A DNA stretch of 56,739 nucleotides, filler included, from Ginglymostoma cirratum (lineage: Eukaryota): NCBI GenBank assembly GCA_024137785.1. It is 3 parts of 3 records of this genome, joined end to end, with 100 filler letters (N's around TTAATTAATTAA, not from the genome) between each part and the next. Parts side by side here need not be neighbours in the genome. Positions count along the whole stretch, not along the records: positions 1 to 21,917 come from JAHRHZ010000116.1; 2 more parts are not named here. The stretch is one strand, 5' to 3'. The position numbers and the translations under genes are program-made. The notes under the pieces were generated by a model, which worked only from the letters and a program-made list of their open reading frames with translations, ran no database searches and was not told the origin of the DNA. Every line of letters begins with the position of its first letter. The first letter of the stretch is position 1. Below, piece after piece: positions 174 to 49,002 of the stretch.

Positions 174-519
174 GGTATTCATTCAGATATCTCATTAACT
201 CAGCCAGAGGCAGAGACAGGGAAGCCTGGATTGTCTCTGAGTCTCATCTGTAAAATTAGCAGGTTCCATTTGGGCAGCTACATTATGTTCTGCTGTATAC
301 AATGTCCTGGGAACAGCCAGCAATGACAATTTTGGTATATCAATGAATAGAACTAAAGTCTTTAATCCCAACATTAGTGAGCAAGATATTTCTTCGAAAA
401 ACCTTACAAACAATAACTTCGCTTTGGATTTCAGGACATTAATAATACCAGATATTGAGACATATTCATATGCACAGAGATACAGTGAGAGAGATCAGAA
501 CCAGATGATGTGCAAAACT
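174..519 (+). pseudogene. IgM-VH-like V segment pseudogene with 3' RSS
   Basis: Translates [38 protein letters not shown]...SKNLTNNNFALDFRTLIIPDIETYSYAQR (shark VH FR1/FR3 pattern) with stops and a frameshift. Heptamer TACAGTG 481-487, 23-nt spacer, nonamer TGCAAAACT 511-519. Confidence 0.88.
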
Positions 520-2119
520 TTAAGAAAGGTAACGTAACATTTTCCATAATTCACAAAGCAGCAATTCACCCACAACTGTCAACAGCTCATCGAGTCAGAT
601 TATTGTAAAGAGCAGAGGAGGCCATTTGGCATTTCGTATCTCTGCCTAGCCCCAAATACTTCTCAATAAGTCCATCTCAACCATTACTTCCACAGAGCTG
701 AGAGTTTTGTCCTCCAATATATTAATACAACTATCTGATTACTGTATAAGAGCAATGCTTTCTTTTCCACTCTCCCATTATTTTATCGTATGGTCTGCAA
801 TGTTCATATCCAGAAGTTCACTTTTTTTAATGTATTCACAATCATATGCATTTATTGCAAAAAAAGGGGTAGAATTAGAAGCAGGCCATTTATCCTAACA
901 ATGCTGCTCCATCAAGCATTGTGACCATGACTGGTCGAATAACCCGCAACTCCGCTTTCCAGCATGTTAATCAATTCACTTATTTTTTTTTCAATCTGTC
1001 TAACTCAGGCTTGAATACATTAACTTATCCATGCTTAAATTACCTCTGTGGGAAATAATTACACAGATTGATGCAATCCTGATAGATGAGATTCCTCAGT
1101 ATATCTCTCTGAAATTTGTGAATTCTTTCTGGAGGCACATACGGGAATGCTAAGAATTGAAAAATTTACTCCTCTCCCTCTCTCTTTACCCCGCTCTATC
1201 AGCCCCTCCCCGACACCCGTGTTTCTCCCATATGTAAAAATATACACTGCCACCTTCTACTGGATAATGGAATGCCTTCACTACACACTCCTGCACAGGA
1301 GGAGTCTAAAAAAAAATCTCTCGCGTATTCCACCACAATGCAGACAGCTGTTCAGAACTCCTATCAAAATGATTGCCAGCTCACTCTCCTTTTTTTTTTG
1401 TTCTGCACTCGCATTTCAAGCTCAACCTACCTCCTACCTTCCAGCTTGTTTTATAATTTTTTTAAAATTCATTCATGGGATATGAGCGCCACTAGCGAGA
1501 ACAGAAATTATCACCCTTCCCTAATTGCTCAGAGGGTAGTAAAGAGTCAACAACATTGCTGTAGGTCTGGAGTCACGTGTAGGCCAGACCTGTTAAAGGA
1601 GATTTCCTTAGCAAAAGGACATTAGTGAACCAGATGGGTTTCCTGACAATTGACAATAATTTCATGATCGTCATTACACTCTTAATTTCACAATATTATC
1701 AAATTCCACCATCTGCCATGCTGGGATTGAAACCCGGGTCCCCGCAACATAGCTTCTTCCCTGAATTAATACTCTAGCGATAAGTCCACTGGGCCATTGC
1801 CTACCCCTATTTTTCAAACAGTTGGCGAGCTGTCCCTGAATTCTGTTTGATCTTGCCTCGCTCAACAGTCTACCACGTGGAACCTTGTTAACGGCCTTGC
1901 TAAGTCTATGTGGATAACATCTACCGCTCTGCTTTCATCTATCTTCTTTGACAGCTCTGCCAAAACCTCAATCAATGTTCGGGTAGTGGCGGATTGCCTT
2001 GATTTCCCAGTAAATAATCGGCTTTCTGGTTCGATGGTGATAGGGGCAATTATTCATCACAGAATAATACCAGGCCCATGTTTGTGGAAAATGAGTGGAT
2101 CAGCTGTAAAGGAGGGGTT

Positions 2120-2400
2120 GAAGAAGAAAGGAAGGCAGTAGTGGTAGGGGACTCTTTAATCAGAAGACAAGCGATATATATGTAGCACTACAAACCCTGA
2201 AGAATTATGTTGCCTCCTTCTTGCCAGGATCAGCACTATCAAAGAGAAGCGACAGAAAATTCTTCTGGGAGAGACAAACAACTAAGGGTTATGATCCACG
2301 TTGAGATCATTGCCTCAGGTAGGAAGGAGCAGTAAGGTCCAGAATGCAAACTTTCGGGAACAATGAAGTATTTAGCATCTGGAATACACTGACCTGAAAA
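2120..2400 (+). mobile_element. Degenerate CR1 ORF1 (SGNH esterase) fragment
   Basis: Translates AVVVGDSLIRR..., similar to AIVIGDSIVRG in the CR1 ORF1 at about 54200. Confidence 0.6.
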
Positions 2401-3179
2401 TGATGGAGGAAAGTTCAATTGATACATTCCAGAGGACATTGGATGGTTATAGAAATAAAGTGCGGGCCTCTGGGGGAAAAGACATGAGTTTAACATGAGG
2501 TAAAAGAACAGTTGCAGTCATGATTGGTTGAATGACTTCCAACTGCTCCATAACAATTCTGTCATTCTGTGGTGCCTCATATCTATCACAGGTAGGCACC
2601 GTGAGAGGAGGGTCAGTTCTGCAAACTCCTGTAGTCATGCATCTCCTGCAATGTTCAGTCAATAGTTGGAAGTGGAATTCTCTTCCATAACATTCAAATG
2701 TGGAAAAATAACAAGTATGGTCCGACAGTCCTTCGTAATGAATGGGATAATGTTCCATTGGTTTAGAGTACTTAAGCAGGTTTCTATTTCAATTCAATCA
2801 TGTGATGTGGAAATCTCTGGCTATGCCATTGATTACTATTGTCCATTCCTAATGACAGTGACGATGGTAGTTGACTTCCTTCCTGAACCATTTCACTCCT
2901 TCGGATATCAGGACACCCAGAGTGTTTCCTTTTTTCCTGAAGGGGGCAGTTATCCGATGTTGATCCAGCGACTATGAATGAAGAATGACTTTATTTTTTA
3001 TATTTATTCATTCATGGGATGAGGGATTCTCCAGCTTGGCCAGTATTCACCACCCATCCATAACTTACCAGAAAGCAGTTCAGTATAGTACCAAACTATC
3101 CATTGTGGGCCCTCCTGGTACTTTTTCTTTACCAGTACATGGTGTCATTACGAAGAACCGTTGGTTTTACAGGTCGATC

Positions 3180-4540
3180 TCAGAGTCTGTACGGTGAATT
3201 GTGAGGTGATGCATTTTGGAAGGTCAAGTACAGGCGGAACTCATACAGTAAATAGCATAACACTGAGGAGTATTGATATGCAGAGGGAAAGAAATGCAGG
3301 CCCACAGATCGCTGAAGGTCGCAGCACAGGTAGATAAAGTTGTAACAATGGCTAATGGTTATGCTTGCCTTCATTGAAAGGGGCACTGAGTATAAGGATT
3401 GACAAGTTATGCTGCTGCTTTATAGAACATTAATTAGGCCACACTTGGAATATTGTGTACAGATCTGGTTACAATACTTCCACAAGGATGTGGATGCTGT
3501 AGAGTGGATACCAAAATGATTTACCAGGATGATGTCTAGTGTGGGGGATGTTAGCAATGAAGAAAGGTTAGAAAGACTGAGTTTGTTTTCACTGGAACGC
3601 AGGAAGTTGAGGGAGGACCGAATAGGAGTTTATGGGATTGTGAATGGCAGGGATAGAATGGAAAATGTGAGTCCATTTTCCCAGTCTGGAGGGGTAAATT
3701 CCGAGGGGAAACTTGTTCGAGGTGCGAAGGGGTAAGTTTAAAAGAGATGTGCGAGGTATATTTTTAACATAAAGAGTGGTGAATGTCTGGAACGCGTTGC
3801 CAGAGGAGGTGGTGGAAGCAGACGCAACAGCAGCATTCAGGAATCACCTGGACGAAGACATAAACGGGAAGTGAATACAGGTATATAGAACCAATAGGTG
3901 AAGACGGTTTTAACATGGAAGAGCAAAATGTGATGGAGCGGGCCTGCAGGTCCGAAGAGCTTGTACCTGTGCTCTATTGTTCTTTGTATGGACACCTGTT
4001 AAGTTTAAACAGAATTCATTAAACTGAAGTGATTCCAGCTCGTCTAACTGTAATAGGGAAAGAATTAATGGAGAAAATGAAAACCTTATTAAATTGGGGA
4101 AATAAATGTTTGGAGAGACACACTGGGCAAGGAAACAAGAAGGAGAGTGAGAGACCATGTTGAAACTTATAAGTATCTGGGGTGAATTCACAAGGTAGTT
4201 ACAGTGAGGTTATTTCTCCTTGAGGGAGTGTAAAGAACCAGAGTGAATATATATCAGACTGCTTATCATTCTGCTGGTCAGAGAGGAGGTGGAATTTCTT
4301 CTGTCAGTGGTTCGTGAATAAATGGGATTCGTTACCACAGACACCGGTCGAAATCGGATCATTAAATATATTCAAAGCTGAGATAGAAAGATTTTCTAAT
4401 CAGTAAGGGATCAACAGCTATGCAGAGGAAAGGCCAAAAATTTGAGTTGATGATGATGAGAACATCCATGATCTGACTGAGTGCAGAAGTAGTCTCGATG
4501 TAAGGACTGGAATAACTTTTCTCCTACGTCTTATGGTGGT
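3180..4540 (+). mobile_element. Two CR1 LINE 3' fragments
   Basis: Translates EERLERLSLFSLERRKLRED..., the typical CR1 ORF2 C-terminus, followed by CR1-type 3' tails. Confidence 0.8.
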
Positions 4541-6068
4541 ATTGTCTATTAATCTCAGCCTGTTGGTTCTTTTCAGCATCCTTGTCTTCGTCTCTCTTCT
4601 CCTGATGGCGTTTCCCTGTCTCACTCTGTACATGTCACAGCACAAACAGAATGTGCTACTCGTGGACCTGTAATAGTTCTTTTCACTCTCACATTGCTGT
4701 TTGTGTGTTTTCTGTGTGCGGCTCTCGGCATCATTTCTTTCTTCACAACAGTGACTTCATTCCGAGGAAACTCACTGCCTGCAAAATGTTCTAAAATGTC
4801 CACTGATTAGAATGTAAGTTATGGAAAATACGGAGAATATAATACTGAGAACGATTACTGCAATGACTCCTGTCGCAGTAAGGTCAATTCAAAACATGGA
4901 GCACAAGTTGTTAGTGTGATGGGAACCTATTCATTTGGCTGCATGCATCAATCAGATTCAAGAAACCACAAGAAACTCCTCACTCGCCATCACGAAGCAA
5001 CCGTTTTGATTACCGTCCTACAGTTAACTTAAACAAACATTCACTGTGTAGCAGGCCAGAAGGATTGCAGAGGAAAATGTCCGCAAGCAGCACTGTGGTA
5101 AGTCATCCTGTCTGTTTCTAAACGTGGTAACAATATATTCACCCTCCATGGTATCAGTCAGAGTAACCTCGTGGAATTTCTCTGAAGAGGCAAGTGAAAA
5201 TCTGTTTAACATCTACAGCATCAACTTCTTACATCAGAACTTTTACCCTCCTCGTTTGAAGAAGGGAGGCAGAGAATAAGTGAGCTGCTAATTTTAGCAT
5301 CAAGGACTTTATATTGATTAGAAGTTGACTGTCTAGAAGAAGGTTATCTTCAAGCGAATAAATGAAGATGGTACAATATAGATCACTTGGTCCTTCAGAA
5401 CCTGCGCCCATATTCAGTAAGATCATGGCTGATCTCAGTTTACATCTAACTCTACATGTCTGCAAATTACCAATAATCTTACAACACCTTGGTCATCAGG
5501 AATCCGCCTACTGCTACCAGAACAATATTTCAAGATTCTGCAACCACGACATTTTCTGGAAGGAAATTCGAAAACACATAACCCACTGAAAGAAAAGGGC
5601 ACAGTTCCTCAGTTCATTCTGAAATGGCGCTAACCCATTCATAAACATTCCTAGTTCTAAGTTCTAGATTTTTGCACAAGAGGGGGCATTATTTCCACTC
5701 CAGCCTGAGCACGCCCCCACAGACTCATTCATGTTTCCCTTCAGTCTCGTCTGACTATTCTAAACTAGACAGGATACAGGCACGCAGACTAACCTTTTAT
5801 ATACATATATATGCACGAGCCCACTCATTCCAAGCAAGTTAGACTAGGATTAATGGAAATATTGGGAAAGATATAAAATTTAATTTTAATGACCATTCTT
5901 AAGGATTTATTCAAGGTGTGCAGCGGTGATTACTGTACTATTTCTTGCAGCTTGACATTAAGACAGGAACTCTGCTGCCTAAATGATATTCATTTAGGAT
6001 AATGCCCACCTCCTGTGACGTCGTTGATTTTGAAACAGCAAGGCTGTCCGCATGGGTCCTGTTTGTCC

Positions 6069-6424
6069 ATGATCTGTGCATGGTTGCATATTAGATTGCA
6101 ACATGGTGATGATCACTGCACAGACGTAGATGGCAGCATCTGATTTTCCAATGTTTCCGATGATCAAAGCACGATGTCGATGTTCCCAGTGAGGACTGAC
6201 ACAAACCTTCGCTGCTCCCACCACGCTGCCAGAAGCGGTGACCAGAAACCCTGGCTCTCCTCGGTCATATCACTTGTACCACAGCACGAAGCTGAGTAAG
6301 GTGTTCATTGTCAGTGACAAACGTCCACAACCACCAGAGGTGATTTGCTATTTAGCCTTGAGTTCTGTAAAGCGGAACGAGGCTCCATGGGAGACAGGGT
6401 GAAAGGAGATTTTGGTGCATGCAT
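6069..6424 (-). pseudogene. TCR-like V pseudogene (leader+V in one exon) with RSS
   Basis: MHAPKSPFTLSPMEPRSALQNSRLNSKSPLVVVD...LLSFVLWYK*YDRGEPGFLVTASGSVV...LIIGNIGKSDAAIYVCAVII. Heptamer CACCATG (6102-6108), 24-nt spacer, nonamer ACAGATCAT. Confidence 0.8.
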
Positions 6425-6903
6425 CAAGAATATGGATTGTGTCGAAAACGCAGGAAAGTGGATTACAGCACAATAGGAACAGCCATGATCCCTTGGAGGA
6501 ACATTCACGATAGGCTCTGTGGCCTACTTCATCTTCTTTGACTCATGTTCTGAAGACCTTTCGGTTTCAGCCAAATGAACGAGCAGGCGCGTGGATATGA
6601 CCCTTTATAGTATGAGTTGTTAAATTCTGGGATACATGATCAAATTGCTGGTAGACAGAAAAATAAAGCAATGTTTACAAAACGAAACCCAACAAATGTA
6701 AGGACATACAGCAGTTTGAAACTGCCGGTTCTCTGCCGGTAGTGATGTGGACAGAGAGATTGCGCAGTATTATGAACTAGGCAGCAAAGATATGAAGATC
6801 AGAATGGTTTGCTTGTGCAGTTCACAATGGATTGCTGAGCTGCTGTCAATGATAACTTACTGGTGTTTTGAGAGTCAAAGAGGATACTGTTTTACCTCTT
6901 GTG

Positions 6904-7409
6904 GGTTGTGGAACAGGTCGAGATATGATCTGTCTCATTGTGTTCCTCTGCACAATAATATGTTGCATTATCTGACATCCTCAACGTTCCAATATCCAAA
7001 GCAAAGACATTGTTTGAAAGATCTTTAGAGGCAGTAGCTCTTCCTGTAACCTCTGGATTACATCTGTTGCTGCTTTCGCTGCTGTATAAAACTAGCCATT
7101 GCAGGCTCTTTGCACGGGTTTCTCCGTATCAGTGGATGGTGTAGCTGCCGAGCTCGAACCCGCTGTTTTTACAGGTCAGCCTCAGAGCGGGTCCGGCGAT
7201 TCCTGTCTCTGCCTCTGGCTGAGTCAACACCACCGCCGACTGGGTACCTAGTACCGGAAAGCAGCATTAATTAAACCAGATTGACTCTTCCCAGGGAAGG
7301 TGTTTCACAAAAAACTGAAAACTTCTTCGAATTTTGGGAAATGGAGCAAATTGAGCTACACACTGGATGCGAAAAAATGTAGCAGAGGGAGAGACCTCTA
7401 TGATACCAT
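6904..7409 (-). pseudogene. IgM-VH-like V pseudogene (leader exon 7364-7409, V exon 6943-7247, 23-RSS)
   Basis: V exon reads [53 protein letters not shown]...TASKDLSNNVFALDIGTLRMSDNATYYCAEE, with the conserved Trp codon as TGA. The leader carries a TAG. RSS is CACAATG-23-TCCACAACC. Confidence 0.92.
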
Positions 7410-8874
7410 GCTTCCTGATGCCAGGTAAACTAGGGCAATCTGTGGTCGAGTCCGTCACTGATAATGCACTTTGGAGATTGAAAGATTCTGATCATCGCTC
7501 ACAGAAGCTGATGAATTGGCGACAGGGGTAGACAGTTTTGAGGAGACAAGTTATTAGTTGCCTACAATCGACATCTGATGTAAACACATGCACTTCTGAT
7601 CAGCCACAGGGGGTTGTGTAGTAGTACCGTATCATTTTCAAGACTGGGAACATTGAATGAATTGAGGATCATGCCTGACACCCAGAGAAAGATTGTCCTA
7701 TTCCCAATTTCTCCTTTCAGTCTGTTAAAACAATTCTCAAATCCCTAAACCCATGTTGCGCACTAATGTCTTATTTAGGAGTTTACCCCAATCTACTTGA
7801 AAATTCAAATGCACCAAAGCCACTACTTCTTCTGTTCAATTCTGTTTGTTACATCTTCAATAAAATGCTAATGGCTTTGTTACGCGTGATTTGTTAATCG
7901 TAAACACTTGTTGATTTTGTCCAACACGTCAATGTTTTGCGATCTATTCCATGCACAGGATGAATAAAGTGAACGATTATTTCAACAGCATGTTATTGTG
8001 ATAATAAATGACCTCCATGAAAGGATATTGTTCTTTTTCAGTTCTCTTTTGTCCAAGAGTTGGATACATTCCAAGAATAGAAAACCTTATGGGTGCATTA
8101 TGGGGAGAATTGATCATTGTGATGAGCTGATTCACCTGGTTCAAAGTGATTGGAGTATTTTGAGGCGATACCGAGGTGTATATCGCTGGACTGCCAATCA
8201 GAGTAATAATCTGGGTGTCTGAGTTCGAGATTCGCCACAGCAGATGATAGGAATTGAATTTTATAAAAACCTGGAATTAAGAGTCTAATGATGACCATTA
8301 TCTCTTGTCCAAATTCAAAACCCATCTGGCTCCTCCCTTGATGGAAGGAAACTGCCATCCTTTACTGGGCTGGACCTGATGTCACTCCAGACTGAAGCAG
8401 TATGTTTGAGTTATAACTGCCCTGTTAGATGGCCTTCTGGTGTGACTGAATTAAACAAAACAACCAACAATGTACCTGGAGCCTGAGTGGCATTATTCCG
8501 AGCTCTCCCATTCTATTAACCGAGGTTACTGATTATGTGGGAGTTTTCTGGACTCATAAGGGCAATAGTCCAATATTGAGTTGATTACTTTGCATCAACG
8601 TCACCAGAGTATATAGAGATAACACTGACTTTTAAAATAAAATGCAATTCCAAACAATGCCGACACCTATACCGGCATCATAGTGATACAAATGTTACTA
8701 TAGCCATTAACGTAGTGATCTGTGTGCATATTTGGTGGGTATTTGTGACTGTCTTCAAGTGTACGCATGTTAGTGAAGCCGAATGGGTATGATCATTTGT
8801 GAAATTGTGTATATTTACTTGTCTCTCTGTCAGCACCTGTGTAACCATCTGCCCGTGTGTAGCGATCTGCCAAG

Positions 8875-8882
8875 GTGTGTGT

Positions 8883-8916
<34 letters not shown>

Positions 8917-8950
8917 CTGTCTGTGTGTCTGTGTCTGTGTGTGTGTGTTT
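8875..8950. repeat. (TG)n microsatellite
   Basis: Direct inspection. Confidence 0.95.
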
Positions 8951-9149
8951 GCACATGCCCACGCACAACCATGAAATATTTTGCCTGGGCATTGATTGAA
9001 CTGAGAAGATTCAAATTCTTTCAGCATTTTACGTCAGATTGTGTTTAACGTGATACAATAGCAACCTCTGCTGTCAGCAGATGTAACAGTACCTATGATT
9101 GTGAAAAATTCAGTTCGAAGCAGAGCAGCGGCAGCTAGCATCCTAACTG

Positions 9150-9600
9150 ATAGAGGCATCAACACACAACACGGGGTTAATGTGCGATCTACAGTGTTCC
9201 TCAGTGTGAGGACGACAGAGGGGCTCAGTGTGTACAGAGAGGTTGACAGGGGGTATACGAGACTCACTTTGGAACACCAGCGGGGCTCAGCTTGGGAAAG
9301 ACAGCGTTAATCAATGTTGAGATTACAGATATGCTCAGTGTGACAATGACAGAGTTGTTCAGTGTGGGAGGGACAGAGGTGGTCAGAGTGGGGATTAAGG
9401 TGATGCTCGGTGTGAGAAACATCGCGGTGGCCAGTCTTGAGATCACAGAGGTGATGAGGGTTGGAATTAAAGAGGCAGTTTATGTTGCATCCAAACTGTG
9501 GTTCATGCGGGAAGTAAAGAGTCGGTCAGTGTGGGCATGACTGATTTGGTTACTGTGGTGATAACAGAGAATGTCTGTGTGCAGAAATTTCAGCGGCAGT
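9150..9600. repeat. Degenerate 24-bp minisatellite
   Basis: Consecutive 24-mers such as ctcagtgtgacaatgacagagttg / ttcagtgtgggagggacagaggtg / gtcagagtggggattaaggtgatg. Confidence 0.75.
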
Positions 9601-10557
9601 CAGTGTGGAGAGGGCAGAGTTGGGCTGAATGTGGGTTACTTTTTGCGTCAGTGTGGGGTTTATAGAAAAGATCAATTTCCACAGAGAACATGGTAAACAA
9701 CTTAATGACTTTGTTAAAGATTGAAACTATTTCAAACGCGTCTAGATATACTTGACAAAATGCATACAGGTATAAAGCTGAATTAGCTATTTTTCTCCAG
9801 ATAACTAAATTGACGAATAAACATAAAGTATTGGAATTGGGAAATGACACAGCAGATGATTGTTATGATCTTACAAACATACGATGAGAATGCCAGAGTC
9901 GGACATTTGGCCATTTAAGACCATCTTCCACATTTCAGTAATATCATGGCTGATCGGAATTTAATATCAACACAACATTCCAGTATGCCGCCAATAATCT
10001 TTCAGCCACTTCGTCATGAAGAATTCCGCCTGAAAAATAATTAATGATTCTGTATTCTCTTCATTTTGAGAAGGGGAATTCGAAAGACTCACAACATATT
10101 CAAAGAAAATGTATTCTTTTTCATCTTTCGTTTACATTTGCACCCACTTCTGAGCTCTGAACCAGTAGTTCAAGGTTCTTCCACAAAACGAAACATACTT
10201 TTCATACACGCCTGATAAAATCCTCTCAGGATCTTATATGTATCAAATAATTCACGTCTGACTGTTCTAAAGTCTAGAGGATTCAGGTCCAGGCCGCCTA
10301 GCCTTTGCTTAAAAGGCAATATTTTCATTCCAAGCACTTTGATGCAGGCTAGGTGATATGATATTGTACATCTAATACTGATGAGCGTTCTTTAGGATGT
10401 TTTAAGGTACGGAGTGGTTCCAAAAGGATATATCCTTTTCGGTTGACATCAGGGCAACAAATCCGTGGTCTGATTGACAGTTAGTTAAGCTAATGTTCTT
10501 CTCTAAGGTCGTTAATGTTGAGATAATGTTTATGTAGGTGTCACTCCTGTGTGGTCG

Positions 10558-10913
10558 GGTCATCCCTGTGACTGCCTGTTCAGGCGTAACATTCTGATGA
10601 TCATTGCACAGAAGTCGTCGGCGTCAGCCGCCCTCCCATTCTCTGTGATGGTCAAAAAAATTATGTTTGTTCCCGGTGAAGAGTGACCTGAATACACCCT
10701 GCTCTGGGCAAGCTGCGTGAGGAGGTGCTACGAATCTCCAGCTCCAATCTGCCACTGTTCATATCTGAGCAAGGTACTGGTACTGCTGCTTATTGCAATC
10801 GATGTGTCGTCCACAGCTACCTGTACGAGAGTAGACTGTTTGATCCACGAGCTCTGTAGCATGGAAGCAACCACCAGGAGCGAAAGAATAAATGGAGATA
10901 ATGTTGCAAGTAC
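10558..10913 (-). pseudogene. TCR-like V pseudogene (leader+V in one exon), degenerate RSS
   Basis: VLATLSPFILSLLVVASMLQSSWIKQSTLVQVAVDDTSIAISSSTSTLLRYEQW...ADADDFCAMII, then the heptamer-position sequence CAGAATG (10590-10596). Homologous to 6069-6424. Confidence 0.72.
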
Positions 10914-11428
10914 CCAGATCCCTGGCGACACGTTGTATTTCCCAAAGGGAAAACAAGATTTATCCCAACAGGTTTACATACATGTGAGACATCTGGTAGT
11001 GATACAGAGAAACACAAATAAAGGAAGATTTATTAAAGGAGAACCGACAATTTCACTTTTAAGTTGGAGGTTCACGCACGCTGTTTGTTCTCAAACGATT
11101 CAACTAAATGTCTATTACTTTCTTTTAACCGTGTTTATCTATTTATCTATCTCTTTAAAATATCACCAGCATTTACCTTAGCATCCTAGTTTCTCAACGG
11201 TCTCTGGATGAAAATAAATGATGTGGAACTCCCATATTCAATATGGAAAAGTTATGTGTATTTTAATCGGTAGAAATCTAGAGCGTATTTATTTTCTAAA
11301 CAATCCATTCAGAAATCTTGGGATACTCCTCCGAAGCAGGTGAGTCCAGCATCATTTGTACCCGATCCCGTTATAGGGGCACTACCACTGCATGTCAGTA
11401 GCACTTAAGAACCTGATGATTAACTCAC

Positions 11429-11483
11429 CTCCGGTGAGTACATTTATTATAATAAAAAGAATCAATGTTAATCGCAATTCCAT
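11429..11483 (-). other. Orphan signal-peptide (leader) exon, intact
   Basis: MELRLTLILFIIINVLTG+G then gtgagt (phase 1 donor). TATAAA lies about 55 nt upstream. Confidence 0.7.
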
Positions 11484-11689
11484 CTTCATGTCCTGTTGAC
11501 AGGTGTAAGCACCAAAATAAATGGCGTCTCTCCTCTTTATAGTGCACAGCAGGCCAGAGGAGGATGTGGAGCTGTTTCCACCCACATGTTAATTCTAGCA
11601 TAAAACCCAGATTCACTTACATACAACATGAGTTAAAGTTAGAGAACAGTAATGATGTTAGTAACGAGACTAATAGACTAACTGACAAT

Positions 11690-12300
11690 CCGTCCTACGT
11701 AGATGCGATGGTCAAGAAGGCACAGCAACATCTCCTCTTCCTCAGGGGGCTAGAAATTTCAACATGACAATGAGGACCCCACACGAACTTCTATAGAGGC
11801 ATCATGGAAAGCATACTATCCTGGTACTTAACGGCTTGATACAGCAAGTGCTCTGCCCACGATAGTAGGAAACTACAGAAACTCATGTACACAGCCAAGA
11901 CCATTGAGGAAACCAAACTCCTAACCATGGACTCCAATTACATATCTCGATGCAGCTGAATGGCTGCCAATATCATCAACAATCTCTCCCACACCGGTAA
12001 TGCTCTACTACAACATCTTCTGTCAGGAGGTAGATCGGGAAGACTGAACACACGCACCAATGCGTTCAATCACGGCATTTTCTCCTGCCATTGTTAGACT
12101 GATGAATGGACACTCTAACATCAAATAATGCTAATCTTGATAATGTTGGGCTTTCTTTGCGCACTTCCTGTACATGCTTCACTCTATCTAAAGCCCCTAT
12201 GATCTGTGCGTCCTTGTTTGCTATGATCTGCCTGTACTGCTCACAAACAAAGCTTTCCACTGTATTTAGGTACACGTGACTGCAATACATCAGGTCAAAT
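11690..12300 (+). mobile_element. Rex1/Babar-like LINE 3' fragment
   Basis: Translates VKKAQQHLLFLRGL...FYRGIMESIL, resembling the Rex1 RT C-terminal region. Confidence 0.7.
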
Positions 12301-12377
12301 CGAACAGTCCAAGTGAAGATGCAGCTGAAAACAACAGTCAACAAATTGAGATTAAAAGTGAAGTCTTGTAACAATGA

Positions 12378-12770
12378 GAGATAACAAGCATGGGGCTGGA
12401 TGAACACAGCAGGTCAAGCAGCATCATAGGAGCAGGAAAACTTGACGTTTCGGGCCTAAACCCTTCATCAGAAATGGGGGAGGGGAAGAGGGTTCTGAAA
12501 TAAATAGGGAGAGAGGGGGAGGCGGATAGAGGATGGATAAAGGAGAGGATAGGTGGAGAGGAGGCAGACAAGTCGAAGAGGAGGGGATGGAGCCAGTAAA
12601 GGTGAGTGTAGGTAGGGGGGTAGGGAGGAGATAGGTCAGTCCAGGGAGGACGGACAGGTCAAGGGGGCGGGATGATGTTAGTAGATAGGAGATGGGGGTG
12701 TGGCTTGAGGTGAGAGGAAAAACAGGTTAGGGAGGTGGAGATGAGCTGGGCTGGTTTTGGGATGCGGTCT
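12378..12770 (-). mobile_element. Penelope-like pLTR/3' fragment containing a hammerhead core (12444-12471)
   Basis: The minus strand reads CTGATGA AGGGTTTAGGCCC GAAACGTC. Same family as the copies at 21.2, 21.8, 24.7, 29.3 and 33.6 kb. Confidence 0.75.
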
Positions 12771-12930
12771 CCCCTCCCTATTGAGTAGCAGGTGAATCAG
12801 CCGGCAGAGATATGCAGATTCGAATGGTTTCCTTTATCAGTTCACAAGGGTTTGAATAGCTGAGTCTCTGTCAGTTATGAGTCCATTTCTGCTTAGAGAA
12901 TCGAGGAAAAATGTTACATTTCCTCTTGTG

Positions 12931-13415
12931 GGTTTTTGTACAGGTATCTGATCTGCTTCTCTGTGCCCATGTACAGTAATATGTCGCGTTGTCTCACATC
13001 TTCAATGTTCTGATATCCAGAGAAGTTATTTTTTGATCGGTCTTTGGAAGTACTCACTCGTCCTTTAATCTCTGGAATATAATCGTTGCTGTTTTCTCTG
13101 TAGTACCAAACTAACAATTGCAGGTCATTCCCAGGGCGCGGTCTTTTCGAGAACATGGTGTTGCTGTCGAGATCGAACCTATTGGTTTTACAGGTCATTG
13201 TCAAAGACTTTCAGGGTATCCCTCTATCTGCCTCTGGCTGAGTCAATGTCATCTTCGACTGGGCAACTAGTAAAGTAAAGCATCATTCATTAAACCAGTC
13301 TGACTCGGGCTTCTGTCATACACAAAAAAGTTTGGCAGATTATTGGATTCTGAAAATCTGACGCAAATGCTTACGGATGGGCAGGAGGGAGGGTTGTTTT
13401 GAGAAAACAAGTCAT
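12931..13415 (-). pseudogene. IgM-VH-like V pseudogene (leader remnant 13375-13415, V exon 12966-13266)
   Basis: AQSKMTLTQPEADRGIP*KSLTMTCKTNRFDLDSNTM...RVSTSKDRSKNNF, frameshifted before ATYYC. RSS is CACAGAG, 19-nt spacer, canonical ACAAAAACC. Confidence 0.9.
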
Positions 13416-13559
13416 TGATGGCCTAAAATCGTCGTCTTATGTAAATACACAAAGTTCTGCTCATTCATAAGTTACGGGGCAGTTGCACCATCTCATTATC
13501 GACGCTGTGTTAAAAGATGGGATTGAGAATTACTGTTTGACATTCAGAGAAAGACTCAG

Positions 13560-14060
13560 CATCAATGTACACAATTGGTCATTTAGGCGATAACACAGAA
13601 GCCAACGTGAGGACGACAGGTGCGTTCATTATAGGAGCTGCAGAATGAATCAGGTTGGGCATTTCAACCAGAAGTTCATGTGTTATGATAACAGAATGTG
13701 TCAGTGCGGAAATCACAGAGATGATCAGTCAATGGATTCCAGCGGTAGTTTTCTTGGAATTGCAGAGCAGATCCGTGTGGCAATTACAGAGTGAATCAGT
13801 TGGAGAGAGCAGAGATATTCAGTGTGGGTGTTACAGACATTGTCCATGTTTGTTTTGCGGACATATCAGCTTGGCAATGACAGAATTGCTTAAAGTTGGG
13901 ATTTTGGTCGGAGTCAGCGTCGGTGTTACAATAATAATCAGAGTGGAGATTACAGTGCTCGTGAGAGTGGAGTTTTCAGAGAGGGTCGGTGTCGAGATAA
14001 CAGAGTTGGTCAGTAGTGGAGTGCCAAAGAAGCTAGTGTAAGGATTAAATTATGATCGGC
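13560..14060. repeat. Second copy of the degenerate 24-bp minisatellite
   Basis: Units such as atcagagtggagattacagtgctc, with the same periodicity as 9150-9600. Confidence 0.7.
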
Positions 14061-14277
14061 TTTGGCAGAGAAATAGAAGCATATTCCACAGAATCCTCCC
14101 AGAGTTGTTCACAGAGCTCAGTCTCACTGTAGTTCCGCCTCCTCTGTGGGTGTTTTTATCTCTCACTGAACAGCGGTGCCTCACAGAACAGGACTAATTG
14201 CACGTCTGAATAAATTCATAGTTTTTGTCTTTGGTTCTCGGACCATCAGAGTCTGCTTGCGTGTGTCTATATGATTT

Positions 14278-14406
14278 NNNNNNNNNNNNNNNNNNNNNNN
14301 NNNNNNNNNNNNNNNNNNNNNNNNNNNNNNNNNNNNNNNNNNNNNNNNNNNNNNNNNNNNNNNNNNNNNNNNNNNNNNNNNNNNNNNNNNNNNNNNNNNN
14401 NNNNNN
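14278..14406. other. Assembly gap (N run)
   Basis: Ns. Confidence 0.99.
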
Positions 14407-14460
14407 GATCGCTTGTCTGTTGTCCTGATTGTGAATTTGTTTCTGTCTTTGTGTGTGTGT

Positions 14461-14491
<31 letters not shown>

Positions 14492-16099
14492 TGTCTTTCT
14501 GTGTACATATTTGTGCAAATGTGTAATCTGGTTGAAGTGCATAAGTCAAAGAGTCTTTGCACTGGTCTGAATGTTTAGACGTACATATTTGCGGTCAGGC
14601 ATTTGTTACTGTGTTTCGCTGTTGTGTGTTGTTCAACTATCTCAGTACCTGATTAGAAACATGTTGAAAAGATCGTACATATTAAGTTGGAATGTTGTTT
14701 CGGGAGCCTGGTTTCAATACAGAATCCAGTGGCCTTTGCTCTCAGAGACAAGCTGTCTTGAGCGATGATGATAAATAAATTAATGGAATTTTTTTTTCTC
14801 TGTTTCCAAAGTTTCCTCCTTGAGTTGAATGTTATAAAATGCGACCATCTGCTGGTGTATCTCCGCTACTGCACAAGAGGATTGTCAACCTCATCAGTTA
14901 TTCACGCAGGAGTATAGCCGCACACAGCAGTTTCAAACTGACAACAGCATCAGCTCACACAGAGGAAGAAGAGTGTACAGCCTTTTATGTTGTCAATCTG
15001 CATGAAGAGTTCACATTTGTAAATGTGTTGGTGATATTTTAATGATTCTTTTGCAATTTGTTTCTCATTGCTTCGATGTCTGTCATTCTCAATAGCACTT
15101 TCTCCACCTCCCATATCAATTTCCTAGAATCATAGTCAACGGTTCGATGAGAGGAAGAGTTTGCTCTGAATCAGGTTGTGCAACAGGGAACGTTTGTACA
15201 CACTGAGAAAGTTGCACAATGCTTTGAGGTGTACCTATATAATGGACAATTTAGATCTCCTCAATGACGGTTCAGCTTCAGGCTTAACTCCTTACTACTG
15301 AAAAATGTTCCTTAATTCTTAATTTGTTTGTGGCTTTTAGCAGAACAGACATTCATCTCCATCCCAGATGGCAAACTGTGCAACTACTCACAGTAGAACA
15401 CCACTAATGTAAAATAGAATGAGATGATGTCATTGCATGTCTGCAAGTCTGAAAAGAAATGACTGTGAACAAAAATATTTCATGTTTACCAGAATAAGAA
15501 TAATTCTTCAGTATATAATCAAGGTGCTTGGAGGGTACTTGTGGCCTCCTGGTCAGTGTGCCTATCTTTGAGTCAGATGGCTCGCATATGTTCCCTTCTG
15601 CTCTACAGGTGTGCATTGAATACTGGGCAGCTAAAATCAGAAACGTTGTTTACATCTGTAGGAGAGGCTAGGAGAGGAGGACATAATCTTTAAAGAAAGA
15701 CCCGCACCTTTCAGACGGAGATTAGGAGGAAAAGCTTCCCCCAGAAGGAAATAAATCTGAGGAATTCTTTACAACAGAAGTTGGATTGTAAATTATGTTC
15801 AGTGCAGAGGTTGAAAAAATGTATTCGATTATTAGAATCAAAGACTGTGCAGAAAACACAGGAGAGTAGAATTGATGCTTATCAGATGAGCTATGATTTC
15901 ATTTTTCGATGGACTGAGTGGCCTACTTCTGCTTCTATGTTTTATGCTCTTAAGACCTCTTGAATGCAAACAAATGAGAGAGTCCGTCTGTGGGCATGTG
16001 CATTTACGCAGTGATTTGTTTAAAGTTGGATTGCACGACCAGGTTCCAACCAGAGGGGAAAAGGAAATATTTTGTTCAGAATGCAACCATATAAACATC

Positions 16100-16341
16100 C
16101 AGGCAAACTGCCGTCTCTGTACAAATACTAGTGGAAAGGGAATCATTGATTAGTAACTTGAAACAGTGAAGTAAAACAGCATTCATTAAACTGGAGTGAA
16201 TCTTCCTTGTAACTGCCCCTGGGAAAGGTGTTGACAAACGACTGAAATACAACCTTAAAACTGGGGTAAAAAAGAAAATAATTGCACCTATTCACTTGAG
16301 GAGAAAGCAAGAAGGAGAGCTTTAGACCTTGGTGGCACCAT
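16100..16341 (-). pseudogene. VH-like leader exon (16296-16341) with intron; V exon almost entirely deleted
   Basis: MVPPRSKALLLAFSS+A then gtgaat, 46 nt like the 7364-7409 leader. The intron 3' end matches those at 7250-7290 and 13268-13305. Confidence 0.6.
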
Positions 16342-17654
16342 GTTTCCTGAGGCTGTGTTAAATGGGTCCGTATGTCTAAAGTCACTCATTGATAAATCTG
16401 TTTGGCGGATATCAAGAATCAGCAGAAGAGTGGGCGGTTTTAACGACATAAAGTATTGGTTTCCTAATGTTGGCGCACCCAATGTAAATATAAAGGTTTC
16501 TTAATACCCCCAGTGTCCAGCACGGCAGCAGCATCTCATTGTGAACATTTCAGGACAGAATGAATTGTGAGTAAATGCATGAATTCGTTTTATTTCAAAA
16601 GGATACTTTATTCACAAACCTATCCTTATAAACATACATAGTCAACAAACCAGCTCGGGCCTGATTAGTAGCATGTGAAGACAAAAACAAACATTGGAGT
16701 GTGACGCTATCCAGCGAACAATTTCAAGGCTTTCTTACCTGTAGAAGTATATATTTAGATTTATTTAATATACCACGAGTGTCCGATAGTGCACGGACCC
16801 TCATTTAACTTTTGCAGAAAAAGACCATTTACTTTTCCCACTCTGGTTCCTGTATGTCTACGAATTCTTGTTCTGCGCCAACACGTTGTCCCCAGAATCT
16901 TGAAGTTGTCCGCAAACAAATATCATCTTACGTAGGAAATTTTCAAAACATTTTCGGAAAATCAAACGTTACAGTTACAGTGACTCAAGATTTTCAATTC
17001 TACTTGTTAAATACTAAAACAAAATGCAGTAGATTTGTTAAACATGATTTGCCTGCCATAAAATGATGCTGGTTATGCCCAATCCGGTCGATTCTTCCCA
17101 AATGTTTTATTATACACACCTGTCAGTGGTAAATAAACCTTAAAAAGGAATACTGATAACATGGCGGTAGTTTACTTCAGTAACAATTTATAGTGATATG
17201 AGCTGAACTGCCTGATGGGTGACGGAGAATTTACAATTTTCTTTTTGCAAATGGTAGATGGCTGTGTTTCGGGTGTCAGAATACTTGAGGCTGTGCTGTG
17301 GAGAGAATAGGTGAGTGTGATTAACTGAATAATGCACTTCAGGAGCAGCAATGAATCTGAAGGCAACTGACCACATCCCGAGAGCCTCCATTCTATTACT
17401 TGAATTTACTCACGGTTTGGAAGGGTTCTGGGCCCCGAAGAAAAGAAGTCAAACTTTCAGTCAATTACATCTCCCAAGTTTGCATCAGAATCTTCACAGT
17501 TTGCAGCAAATACACAGAAGTTGCACAGAAAATGCAATCCAAATTAATTGTACGAATGTTACAGCAGGCATTAAATTACGAGTTAAGGTGCACGGATGTG
17601 TATCTGAGACTGTGTGCAAGTGTTATCGTGGTATATCACATCCTGCGCGCATGA

Positions 17655-17705
<51 letters not shown>
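17655..17705. repeat. (TG)n microsatellite
   Basis: Direct inspection. Confidence 0.95.
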
Positions 17706-17959
17706 TGTATGTGTTTGTCTGTGTCTGTGTATGTTTGTGTATGTTTTTGTGTGTTTGTGAGTAAGTGTTTCTACTTGCATGCCTGGTGCTGCGCAAACTT
17801 ACACTTGTCTCACTTACTGTGTGTTTGTCTGCTTATCTGTCATTCTGTGTTTGTGAATGCCTCTATTTGTGTAAAAGGAGATATTTGTCAGCAGTTATTG
17901 AATTTCGAGGTGAAAGCCTCCGTGTCGTTTTCCTCACTTTATGTTTAAAATAAAACAAC

Positions 17960-18163
17960 ATGGCATAGTGAATGGGAGCTAGAGCTTCTGGTTACCGACT
18001 CGGGCAGCGTGGTCAGACCAGGGAGGCTTCAGGGCACTCTTCACCGGGAACATAAACAGAGCAATTGGACAATCAGGGACATCGAGAGGAAGGTTGACGC
18101 TGTCTTCCTCTTCATGATGATCATTACCATGATACAACCCAATGAGTAACCAGTACAGAAACT
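17960..18163 (+). pseudogene. 5'-truncated TCR-like V pseudogene with 23-RSS
   Basis: WHSEWELELLVTDSGSVVRPGRLQGTLHREHKQSNWTIRDIERKVDAVFLFMMII, followed by TACCATG (18125-18131), 23 nt, ACAGAAACT. Confidence 0.78.
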
Positions 18164-18454
18164 CTGGGGAGACAGCAGTTAGACAGACTGCCTCACCACC
18201 TCAATCACACCACCTTTTCACAGGAGCAGTAGTAACTGATTGGAAATGAATTATGTGGATTTCCCATGCTCAGTGTGGTCATATTACATGAATCTTAATC
18301 AGTAAGAATCAAGAGTGCATCTATTTACTAAACAGCCTGTTCAGAGATGTTATAAACACTTCTACAAAAGGTGAAGCTAGAAACCCGACCTATTTGATTA
18401 AAAGCAAGTGACAGTGGCTTTCAACATCAGTAGACCCTAAGAATCTCAAAAGTA

Positions 18455-18510
18455 ACTCTCTTCTAGTTGATTTTATTCAGGATAATCAATGTTAATCGCA
18501 CATCCGTCTG
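18455..18510 (-). pseudogene. Degenerate orphan leader exon copy
   Basis: GATGTGCGATTAACATTGATTATCCTG is homologous to 11429-11483, and an upstream TATAAA is retained. Confidence 0.55.
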
Positions 18511-20290
18511 CAATTCCTATTTAAAGGGACACTACATTGAAATAAACAATGGCTCTATGCTTTATACTGCACAGAAGACACGAGAGAAGGAAGTGTCGCT
18601 GTTATACTTCCACCCACACGCTAATTGACATGAAAAGACCCGGGACCTCTGACACACCACATTAGTTAAACAGAGAACAATATTGGCGTCAGTAACACCC
18701 GTGGAAATGCAGTTGGAAAGAAGACTCGATCAATTGTGAATAAAGACTAATTAGACTTCATTTCTTAGTGGGGGCGGGGCAAGATTTTGTTCCATTATGG
18801 TATCTACAATCAAATTTCAGCTGATATCACTAAAACGTAGGGAATGTCCAAGAAGGAGAGAATGAAGGTGAAATTCAGTGCAAAGAAAGTGAGGCACAAA
18901 TAGAGCGCAATAAAGATGGCGCTGTGTATCCTCAAAGAAGCCAACAGGGGAGACTGACAAATGTGAGTCTGTTGGAACTGATACAGAGAAAAACCAAGAG
19001 AGGAGTTCGGCTTGACGTAACTGCAACTACGAATCGTGAAAATCAACAAAAGATCAGCCAAATGGAGAGCAGCAGCAGATCAACAACAAATCTGACAACA
19101 GCATCAATACACGCGAGCACACACACACACAAACTCACACACACATACGCAGAAACAGTGACAGAGACAGTCAAAGTAGAAAGACAAACGAGGAACCATT
19201 TTTGAGGGGCAGTGTGACAATAGATGAATAATTTTGGGCATTGTATCAACGTATACATTTACCGAAGTCTCTCTGTCTTTCAGTCTTGGTGTCCTGATTA
19301 TCTCTGAGTCAATTTCCATTCATCAATCTCTCTATTCCTCCAGCTATCTTCTTTCTGTCCGTCTATTTACCTATCTGTCCATCTATCTATCTATCTATCT
19401 ATACTTATATCTATTAAAATTTCCAGTGTTAGATAGAAAGACATCTGAAGAGGCGTTGAATCTGACTTTGACTCTGTTTTCAAGGATCAGAATCAATCTA
19501 TTGTGAGATCTATCGACTGTGTAAGAGAAAGCGCTCTTCCTCCAAGTCAATCTCAGCAAACATACCTTCTTGAAAAATAAAATATGGACAATGATTCTGT
19601 TAAATTGACATGGGGTAGTGGAAAGGGGTTTACAGAATACCAGTCACCCCAGCAAAGAGAAGCAAAGTACAAAAGAGTCTTTAAAATATGAACAATGAAT
19701 TTATGAATTTCAGTTGGCTTTGAAACTTGAAATTAGAAAAGACTGTTCACTGCTCCTTTGTGTGAGATGATGCTGTTTTCGGTTTGAATGGTGTCATTCA
19801 TCGCTGCTCTCTCTTGACAGAATCCATGATCAGTTTCACCTTTCCCTTGTGTAGTAAAGGACATCCACCAGCAGAAGGTAGAACTGAATTGCATTGAACT
19901 GAAGGGTGGGAAACAGGGATAAACACTGTGAGAAACAAAAACAGAAATGGCTGGAATTTCTCAGCAGGTCTGCCAGAATCCGTGGACAGAAATCAGAGAT
20001 AAAGTTTCGGCTTGAATGCCCCTTCCTGGGAACTAATTTTTCTCCACAGACATTTGCTCAAAGTGAATATTCATAATCTGAGACTGACACACGGTGGGAT
20101 AATGTGAAGAGTATACATGTCTTTTTTTTTAAACTACCATATATACAAGCACTTATTGTGACGAGAACAGACCGAACAAAAAGTGGATTGGGAAGAAACA
20201 GGATGTGTGAATACATATTGGGGTATGCCCATTGGAATGAACGGTCTGTTTCCCTAACGGGAAATTCAATGTGTTTCCAGGGAGCTAGAA

Positions 20291-20660
20291 GTGTGATCCC
20301 CTATCTCCGATCATCATTCCTCCCATGGGGGATTAAGTCCATATTACATAATTGCAGGCCAAAGTATGAAGCACACAGTCGCCTGTGGCACTAATAACTG
20401 TGGAAGTCTCCTACGTGCCAAAGATCTACAGTACACATGACATTGCTCACCTTTGCGAAATGGTTCAGGTGGCACGGCGGAGGGGAGCCAAATCTTCTGA
20501 TCACCACCTCTATCTGCGTAAAGGATTCGGGACGCTCTTCACCAGAACAGAAATGGACCACATTCATCATCAGAGACATCAGGAGGAAGGATACTGTGAT
20601 TTACCACTGCCTGGTGATCATCACCACGTAACAACTCAAAGGGCAACCAGTATAGATGCT
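20291..20660 (+). pseudogene. TCR-like V pseudogene (leader+V in one exon) with 23-RSS
   Basis: ...KSILHNCRPKYE / TQSPVALITVEVSY... / TLLTFAKWFRWHGGGEPNLLITTS...FIIRDIRRKDTVIYHCLVII (frameshifts at the slashes). CACCACG (20622-20628), 23 nt, ATAGATGCT. Confidence 0.8.
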
Positions 20661-20970
20661 CCAGGCAGGCAGGAGTCATGCTGACAGCTTTGCGATCTGA
20701 ACATCAACAATCTTACGGAGGAGCAACAATCACTGACTGAAAATGAATTATGTGAAACTACGCTGTTCAATGTGGAAATATTGTGTGAATCGACATTGGT
20801 GAGAAACTAAAGCGCTTCCATTTTCTAAGGAACGTGCTCTTAGATGTTATTAGGCACATGAAGAGTAGGTGACATGAAAACTGCAATTAATTGGAATCCG
20901 AGGGAGGGAGTCTATCACTGACAGCAGTAGATCCTCAGAGACACACAAGAGCCACTGATCTGTAACTCAT

Positions 20971-21025
20971 CTTGTTGATTTCCAATCAGGCGCATGAGGA
21001 TAATCAATGTTAATCGTACATCCAT
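20971..21025 (-). pseudogene. Orphan leader exon copy with mutated donor
   Basis: MDVRLTLIILMRLIGNQQ+G then atgagt. 55 nt, the same length as 11429-11483. Confidence 0.6.
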
Positions 21026-21214
21026 CTTCATGTGCTGTTCACAGGAGTGCAACTTCGAAACAGGCAAAGATTCTGCTCTTTAAAGTGCACTACAGACCAA
21101 CGAAGGAAATGGAGCAAGTGCATTTGCATTAACACGTGAACTGAAAACAAAGATCCAAGATAACTTATTCAACACTTAATTTAAACATAGAGAATAGTAG
21201 TGTACTCAGTAACT

Positions 21215-21821: not shown

Positions 21822-22092
21822 GATAAAAGGTACTGCAGATGCTGAAGAATCCGAGATAACAAGGTGTGGAGCTGGATGAACACAGCAGGCCAAGCAGCAT
21901 CATAGGAGCAGGAAAACNNNNNNNNNNNNNNNNNNNNNNNNNNNNNNNNNNNNNNNNNNNNTTAATTAATTAANNNNNNNNNNNNNNNNNNNNNNNNNNN
22001 NNNNNNNNNNNNNNNNNAAGCTGCTTGACCTGCTGTGTTCATCCAGCCCCATGCTTGTTATCTCGGATTCTCCAGCATCTGCAGTACCTTTT
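21822..22092. mobile_element. Palindromic Penelope-derived element spanning a 100-bp scaffold gap (21918-22017)
   Basis: Inverted arms flank the N run, and the gap contains a TTAATTAATTAA linker. Confidence 0.7.
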
Positions 22093-48902: not shown

Positions 48903-49002
48903 NNNNNNNNNNNNNNNNNNNNNNNNNNNNNNNNNNNNNNNNNNNNTTAATTAATTAANNNNNNNNNNNNNNNNNNNNNNNNNNNNNNNNNNNNNNNNNN
49001 NN
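48903..49002. other. 100-bp scaffold gap with TTAATTAATTAA linker
   Basis: Ns with an embedded linker. Confidence 0.98.

Follow-up and report, generated by a model that had tools for sequence, protein, structure and literature searches.

The 22-kb piece at positions 1-21917 of the window (the whole stretch of 56,739 nucleotides from Ginglymostoma cirratum that was analysed) is likely a decayed stretch of the V array of the shark TCR alpha/delta locus, a reading to which we give a probability of about 0.8. It comprises nine dead V gene remnants, five of them antibody-heavy-chain-like (family A) and four TCR alpha/delta-like (family B) (Table 1). The V exons follow each other in the order A1(+) B1(-) A2(-) B2(-) A3(-) B3(+) B4(+), and all seven are pseudogenes; no protein can be encoded by these copies. 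The preliminary description, in which three VH-like exons alternate with four V segments of an unrelated family in both orientations, proved accurate for the place of each of the seven. Two VH remnants (A4 and A5), three B-type promoter/leader elements (E0, E3, and E4), and two identical 100-base N-spacers had gone unnoticed. We infer that the spacers likely join separate assembly records, and linkage of the sequence past the first spacer to positions 1-21917 is therefore unsupported. Any link of the V array to the C1 and VJ exons was dropped, as these are located to the right of the spacer.

Table 1. V gene remnants, promoter/leader elements, and N-spacer of the analysed record.
Feature	Description	Position	Strand	Details
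A1	VH-like V exon, pseudogene	174..480	+	sequence lesions
A1 RSS	23 spacer	481..519	+	first heptamer base C>T
A5 exon	FR1-FR2 fragment of a further VH-like gene	3079..3194	-	nhmmer E 3.5e-13; tblastn
A5 leader	leader/intron remnant	4007..4166	-	nhmmer E 1.8e-11
B1	TCR alpha/delta-type V exon and RSS	6071..6400	-	heptamer at 6108, spacer 22-23
A2	VH-like gene in best condition: leader, V exon, RSS	6904..7409	-	
B2	TCR alpha/delta-type V exon, frameshifted	10550..10900	-	heptamer at 10596, third base altered
E0	promoter/leader element	11195..11665	-	
A3	VH-like V exon and RSS	12931..13266	-	
A4	VH-like leader and intron	16150..16420	-	
B3	3' half of TCR alpha/delta-type V exon	17960..18163	+	second Cys gone; RSS 18125-18163, 23 spacer
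E3	decayed copy of the E0 promoter/leader	18236..18696	-	tail to tail with B3
B4	TCR alpha/delta-type V exon, 5' half damaged	20320..20660	+	RSS 20622-20660, 23 spacer
E4	copy of the E0 promoter/leader, donor GT gone	20724..21213	-	tail to tail with B4
N-spacer	100 bases, 12-base core	21918..22017	.	exact repeat at 48903-49002

With regard to family A, A2 retains a leader (7409-7364) with an in-frame stop, a V exon (7247-6943) with a stop at the FR2 Trp and both Cys present, and an RSS (6942-6904). It matches the V-set of Pfam (E 5e-9) and VH domains in the PDB. A1 has lost the acceptor AG, the FR2 Trp, and the second Cys, carries a stop and a +1 frameshift, and exhibits no leader within positions 1-173. 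A3 exhibits two stops and two 2-base deletions, the FR2 Trp is gone, and the leader is deleted; the nonamer of its RSS is perfect. The leader of A4 (16341-16296) is open, and its V exon and RSS are deleted. According to repeat matches, the exon and the leader of A5 are split by a high-copy LINE-like insert (about 3197-3960). Pfam matches to INSIG and Cry1Ac_D5 were under the cut-off and are due to chance.

A full HMMER scan was performed for relatives of family A, with 150 matches listed and 30 of these placed in a tree. Among the matches listed, the top three single domains are found in P0005 of Cetorhinus (140 bits), P0012 of Scyliorhinus canicula (128 bits), and P0009 of Chiloscyllium punctatum (124 bits), which are automatically predicted shark gene models, and the next domain scores 109 bits. 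All three models sit with TCR segments, and two of them are joined to J and C-delta. The nine best PDB matches of the J-C part of P0012 are TCR delta, P0005 exhibits a C-terminal J-C resembling that of P0012, and P0009 exhibits a TCR-type V directly upstream. On P0005, family A scores 123 bits on the VH-like domain versus 30 on the NAR-like domain. A1-A3 and the three models form a single clade (99/98 in the 33-row tree, 100/99 in the 21-row tree), and the AU test rejects the grouping of A with five IgM-type V (p-AU 0.007) and with three IgW-type V (p-AU 0.0014), the groups having been defined in view of the first tree and the pseudogene branches being long. The trees and AU tests place A as an IgH-like lineage apart from both IgM and IgW V, together with V of the TCR delta locus, and agree with the initial view that this VH family differs from canonical IgM. 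The margin in identity is thin for A1 (43-44% versus 41%) and for A3, whose second-best identity is an IgM-type V (52%), with P0009 at 48% and P0012 at 46%. Because the family clusters with TCR-linked shark V and apart from IgH-linked V, we designate it as TAILV-like ("Ig-TCRd V"), a name given by likeness alone.

Ig-type V among TCR alpha/delta V have been catalogued in four elasmobranchs, where "Ig-TCRV", "Ig-TCRd V", TAILV, and lone IgMV are present in both orientations, and the published maps locate such V close to TCR constant genes (PMC12227049 table S1). In the literature searched, TAILV was found in a shark context in PMC12227049 only. The TAILV, "Ig-TCRV", "Ig-TCRd V", and "IgWVTCRD" entries resemble family A, which lacks its own D-J-C and lies among TCR V within the 21.9-kb record: they are IgH-type V without D-J-C of their own, they are interspersed with TCR alpha/delta V in either orientation, and TAILV and related entries exhibit a 23-spacer RSS. 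The closest relatives found for A are gene models joined to TCR delta J-C. In contrast to the TAILV entries, with which the likeness is drawn from descriptions, the A copies are all dead and were amplified in blocks with a V-alpha/delta neighbour. P0012 probably corresponds to the catshark "IgWVTCRD" entry, as the name, the species, and the scaffold size agree; the A clade does not group with IgW-type V. As the copies are pseudogenes and their arrangement has already been mapped in sharks and rays, their own importance is small.

To assess the identity of family B, a profile built on five fragments, drawn from all four copies, was searched against the PDB. It retrieved 309 sequences at E up to 1 (best E 3e-6), and the best 60 of these 309 comprise 56 named TCR alpha, two TCR of unnamed chain, one TCR gamma, one CD8 alpha, and no Ig, the references being mammalian chains. 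T8G9 together with a heptamer at +15 from the Cys codon, which is the V-alpha layout (PMC10322711), is present in all four B ends and in none of the three A ends. The second family, first described as TCR-like, can thus be assigned to the TCR alpha/delta V from its profile and its V ends. Separately, a single B copy is marginal (E 0.008), single copies give no V-set match in Pfam, and B1 in tblastn finds a snake IgL-like domain (E 0.003) slightly ahead of a shark TCR V (E 0.017). B scores weakly in a comparison with a small number of shark V domains, its best being 17 bits on a TCR V. Word-index protein searches gave no match for the B alignment or for A2; as the HMMER scan of the same collection gave shark relatives of A2, the A2 blanks are false negatives, and that for B is uninformative. 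The profile matches, the T8G9, the position of the heptamer, the 22-23 spacers, and the separate leader exon are shared with TRAV/TRDV; unlike these, the B copies are pseudogenes, and no close intact shark relative was retrieved. The use of a V as alpha or delta is not readable from genomic sequence (PMC10322711).

The element E0 comprises a TATA-like box (about 11541), an open 20-codon hydrophobic leader exon (11489-11429), a GT donor, and the start of an intron, and is likely the leader of B2. B1 carries two stops, and no leader was found for it. The junction between E4 and B4 is the same as that between E3 and B3. Interpretation of the conserved 470-base element as D/J remnants was ruled out, since it corresponds to the minus-strand promoter and leader, as was a RAG-made inversion of B3 and B4, since the junction is located about 70 bases beyond the nonamer and not at a heptamer.

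The spacer length of each RSS was set by the best nonamer. Spacers of 23 are observed in A1, A2, B3, and B4, in line with the mostly 23-type RSSs reported before (four of the seven); the spacer is 22 in B1, 19 in A3 through a 4-base deletion, and ambiguous in B2. No RSS of the seven is better fitted by a 12 spacer. The RSSs are decayed, with 1 to 8 mismatches in 16. In 5000 random draws, at most 4 mismatches occur in 0.3 to 0.4% and at most 5 in 2 to 3%, so that, judged by mismatches alone, no RSS stands out from random places except those of A2 and A3 and, approximately, those of A1 and B3; the other B RSSs are recognisable through their aligned position. The 1 kb behind each VH-like RSS contains 8, 5, and 5 loose RSS-like matches, versus a background of 3.8 +/- 3.1 per kb, and no back-to-back RSS pair, as expected from the earlier remark that no D lies downstream of any VH. 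Within 1-21917, where the record ends, none of five F/W-G-x-G motifs is in a J context, and six shark J-C queries yielded no tblastn match with an E under 0.5. CTCF-like sites were sought at a constant distance behind the RSSs; of 12 loose matches in 1-21917, none is located at such a place. As the record is at most 21.9 kb, any part of a V array would be expected to lack D, J, and C over this length. The earlier inference of a decayed edge of a TCR alpha/delta translocon, or an orphon of it, is supported in part, namely by the TCR alpha/delta-type B family, the separation of A from IgH-linked V, and the lesions in all copies; "edge" or "orphon" is not supported, as the record ends at the spacer.

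Duplicated blocks of 0.5-1.7 kb with 58-71% identity link 5312-6429 with 9829-10918, 6773-7287 with 12793-13306, 17961-18696 with 20470-21213 and, in pieces, 7258-8931 with 16173-17785. An old duplication of a VH-like and V-alpha block accounts for much of the A/B alternation, which makes this alternation less surprising. An IgH-derived V lineage without its own D-J-C may have adjoined a V-alpha/delta gene; this block would then have been copied several times, in part inverted, and would lastly have decayed through deletion, repeat insertion, and point mutation. In intact A relatives, RAG would use the V RSS with its 23 spacer for joining to D and J of TCR delta, and an Ig-V/TCR-delta chain would result; intact V-alpha-type relatives would join J-alpha (or D-delta). 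Two sequencing runs gave matches, with shares of 0.06 and 0.05, none of the runs listed being RNA, and their contigs covered mainly repeats. Within 5950-7480, run X1 provided four short pieces (33-38 bases) that fit A2, whereas B1 was fitted by none. One of the four extends into a consensus heptamer, so a better-kept germline VH end exists in the organism from which the reads came; these pieces have no bearing on expression or family.

It is unlikely that the piece is an orphon, in which part of the V array of the TCR alpha/delta locus was copied to another genomic site and decayed without D-J-C in reach. The death of all nine remnants, the drift of the blocks, the lack of an intact member in 21.9 kb, and the absence of a flanking locus marker from the record would suit such a copy, but shark V arrays commonly contain dead V (pseudo entries, PMC12227049 table S1), and markers would not be expected in so short a record.

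The VH exons could also derive from ordinary IgM miniclusters whose D, J, and C-mu have disappeared, the TCR V between them being strays. Family A falls inside an IgM-related group in the 33-row tree (99/99), and it resembles the V of shark IgM miniclusters in its IgM-related FR1, its VH fold, its split leader of 46 bases, and its 37-52% identity with V joined to JH and C; TCR-type V have also been reported between IgH clusters (PMC12227049). Moreover, the V-D distance is 250-500 bp in IgM clusters (PMC5192425), whereas the 3' flank common to A1-A3 is about 130-260 bases, so that a D could have been deleted. However, A2 and A4 have about 290 further flank bases in common, with no D signal, and the VH copies are 4-6 kb apart, versus more than 120 kb for IgM clusters (PMC5192425). 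An IgM minicluster exhibits VH-D-D-JH within about 2 kb, followed by C-mu (PMC5192425); no such cluster and no trace of C-mu is present within 1-21917. A also forms a separate clade, and its grouping with IgM-type V is rejected by the AU test. This origin is very unlikely and already disfavoured.

The NAR-TCR layout includes a NAR-type V with its own D and J, then a supporting V-delta, which is not known to have a leader. It is hardly tenable that the VH-like and TCR-V unit derives, through decay, from a doubly rearranging cassette of this kind in which a VH took the place of the NAR V and was followed by a supporting V lacking a leader. The minus-strand order A then B does occur twice (A2-B1 and A3-B2), with leaderless B1 just 500 bases behind the A2 RSS, but the V in first place is VH-like and not of NAR type, no D or J lies between A and B, and a promoter and an open leader (E0) likely belong to B2, so the lack of a leader in B1 looks like a deletion.

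A further, small feature concerns the residue following the FR2 Trp. In the alignment, it is a Tyr in all three intact A relatives and in none of 12 other chondrichthyan VH, and the A copies exhibit a Tyr-type codon at this place, unlike the IgH-linked shark V, which mostly exhibit Val at this V-V interface position, a likely pairing surface. We tentatively consider it possible that the VH-like family represents an antibody V lineage of old age that is dedicated to T cells and has persisted in at least three shark orders. Its dimer face would have been remodelled (Tyr, as in TCR/light-chain V) for pairing with TCR gamma in place of a light chain, and the family would have been block-amplified with a V-alpha/delta neighbour. 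In the shark TCR delta locus, the Ig-type V act as a single conserved lineage, not as recent IgM strays. If the Tyr change serves pairing with TCR gamma, it would account for the turning of an antibody V into a T-cell receptor V.

The three VH-like exons and four exons of a second V family that the preliminary description had placed in alternation are real and were correctly described. All seven are recovered by six-frame translation, self-BLAST and family profiles, in both orientations as claimed, and family profiles reveal two further VH remnants. All V segments lie inside the first record (1-21917), which contains a 129-base gap at 14278-14406; the two N-spacers of the window (21918-22017 and 48903-49002) are identical, at 100 bases each, and connect three distinct records. 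The RSS spacer is mostly of the 23 type (four of the seven copies), with 22 in B1, 19 in A3 and no clear length in B2, and neither D nor J nor C could be recognised anywhere in positions 1-21917. We consider it roughly 80% probable that these segments are a decayed part of a shark TCR alpha/delta V array, duplicated in blocks and containing TAILV-like segments.

V segments and remnants of the VH-like family (A) and the second family (B) in the first record
Segment	Position	Strand	State
A1, VH-like exon	174-480	+	
A2, VH-like exon	7247-6943	-	
A3, VH-like exon	13266-12966	-	
A4, VH remnant	16150-16420		leader and intron kept, exon gone
A5, VH remnant	3079-3194 and 4007-4166		split by LINE-like insert
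B1, second-family exon		-	
B2, second-family exon		-	
B3, second-family exon		+	
B4, second-family exon		+	

The seven V exons are all dead. The best preserved, A2, has a stop in the leader and another at the framework 2 (FR2) Trp, and both A1 and A3 contain stops and frameshifts. B1 has two stops, B2 has a frameshift, B3 lacks its 5' half and the second Cys, and the 5' half of B4 is damaged. The same non-consensus heptamer, changed at positions 4 and 5, occurs in the B copies at 6102-6108, 18125-18131 and 20622-20628, so these changes are older than the duplications. The AG acceptor is also absent at the aligned place in all three readable B exons, a hint that family B was dead before being copied.

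With regard to the identity of family B, B1 alone gives a TCR alpha chain as its top PDB match, weakly (E 0.008), and neither B1 nor B4 as a single copy matches Pfam V-set. A profile built from five fragments representing all four copies is more telling: of the 309 PDB sequences, the best 60 include 56 named TCR alpha, the other four being one TCR gamma, one CD8 alpha and two TCR chains whose type is not named, and no Ig occurs among these 60. The second family is thus TCR-related, as had been proposed. According to Giorgetti et al. (PMC10322711), V-alpha ends carry T8G9, conserved in cartilaginous fish, and in zebrafish the RSS of V-alpha lies at +15 relative to the Cys codon. Both features are present in all four B copies and in none of the three A copies, which supports the V-alpha nature of B independently of the profile. 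The weak scores of family B against the few shark V domains available count against the TCR alpha/delta assignment.

The closest proteins come from sharks. A full HMMER protein scan with family A gave 815 matches with E no higher than 0.001; among the 150 listed, the three top-scoring single domains belong to automatically predicted gene models of Cetorhinus (P0005), Scyliorhinus canicula (P0012) and Chiloscyllium punctatum (P0009). In P0012, the VH-like V runs on into a J and a constant region, whose nine best PDB matches are TCR delta. P0005 comprises several TCR-type V, a VH-like V and then a J-C similar to that of P0012, and P0009 has a TCR-type V immediately upstream of its VH-like V. A1-A3 and the three models form one clade in a tree with 18 matches (100/99) and in a larger one with 30 of the 150, chosen by score and taxon (99/98); the pseudogene branches are long and the identity margins of A1 and A3 thin. 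With the 18-match set, trees forcing A with IgM-type V (p-AU 0.007) or with IgW-type V (p-AU 0.0014) are rejected, these groups having been named only after the first tree and labelled in part from the J-C that goes with each V and from the names that the models bear at source. The VH family is distinct from IgM-type V, as previously stated, and in the 30-match tree its clade lies inside a larger IgM-related group.

The residue following the FR2 Trp is Tyr in A2 and in all three intact relatives; the codon in A1 and A5 is one change from Tyr, and that of A3 is more distant. Tyr is found there in none of the 12 other chondrichthyan VH aligned, and in 8 of 149 domains scoring at least 40 bits (18 of the 149 not parsable): four in the three shark models, one in camel and three in turtle. 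Light-chain and TCR alpha/delta V have Tyr at this position, which we take to be on the V-V interface. This Tyr may be an adaptation for pairing with TCR gamma.

Comparable arrangements have been published. Flajnik et al. 2025 (PMC12227049) report that IgH clusters have TCR-type V lying between them, and that some V are intermediate in type between those of TCR and those of Ig. Entries of their table S1 include 'Ig-TCRV' among TCR alpha/delta V in both orientations in the epaulette shark, a run of 'Ig-TCRd V' ahead of C-delta in the stingray, TAILV and 'IgWVTCRD' in the catshark, and a single IgMV adjoining TCR V in the white shark. Rearrangement of IgH V to TCR delta is mentioned by Ott et al. 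2018 (PMC5931798) and in a review (PMC6795676), Ig-TCR linkage in PMC3964593, and the geometry of IgM clusters in PMC5192425. The VH-like family would work like this known Ig-V/TCR-delta system, and is TAILV-like by likeness only.

Other Ig-type exons occur elsewhere in the window. Past the first spacer lies an open VJ-type Ig domain encoded by a single exon (35263-35619, minus strand; Pfam V-set E 3e-12), with a G-x-G-T J-like end and a GT donor; an open C1-type exon follows 2.7 kb downstream (32213-32524, minus strand), for which UrIg2 is the best summed PDB match, its E of 4e-13 owing mostly to the adding up of domains. The two constitute a non-rearranging VJ-C1 gene, whose V matches by eye neither the UrIg nor the UrIg2 V in fig. 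S2 of PMC12227049. Beyond the second spacer, there is an open V-set exon (52825-53169, minus strand) with Siglec-15 as best PDB match (E 1e-10). Stretches at 40000-41620, 43800-45480 and 53790-56739 are retroelement-like, with a C-rich reading frame and LINE-like sequence, by eye and from repeat matches.

A 470-base promoter/leader element is present in three minus-strand copies, E0, E3 and E4. E0 is directed into B2 and comprises a TATA-like box, an open, hydrophobic exon of 20 codons, and a GT donor. E3 stands tail to tail with B3, and E4 with B4, with a common junction about 70 bases beyond the nonamer, as could result from an inversion or from a deletion between two genes. An Ig-promoter-type octamer (21122-21129, minus strand) precedes the E4 leader by about 100 bases; it is missing in E0 and E3 and may be a chance match.

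Duplicated stretches are shared among A and B copies: B1 and B2 over 1.1 kb (60%), A2 and A3 over 0.5 kb (71%), the upstream regions of A2 and A4 over about 1.7 kb in pieces (58-64%), and B3+E3 and B4+E4 over 0.75 kb (63%), with rough corrected distances of 0.37-0.57. The duplicated block also includes degenerate tandem repeats upstream of A2 and A3 (9180-9680 and 13500-14060). A 360-base non-coding element occurs twice in inverted relative orientation (14789-15137 and 19587-19941; 68% identity), each copy with a CTCF-like motif (about 14855, minus; about 19868, plus) that has no tie to an RSS. The stretches shared among A and B copies make it likely that an A-then-B block was duplicated in tandem, two or three times over; inverted block copies would have arisen at both ends, and erosion would have followed. 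As the alternation would stem from block copying, few independent Ig-TCR juxtapositions, perhaps one, would be needed.
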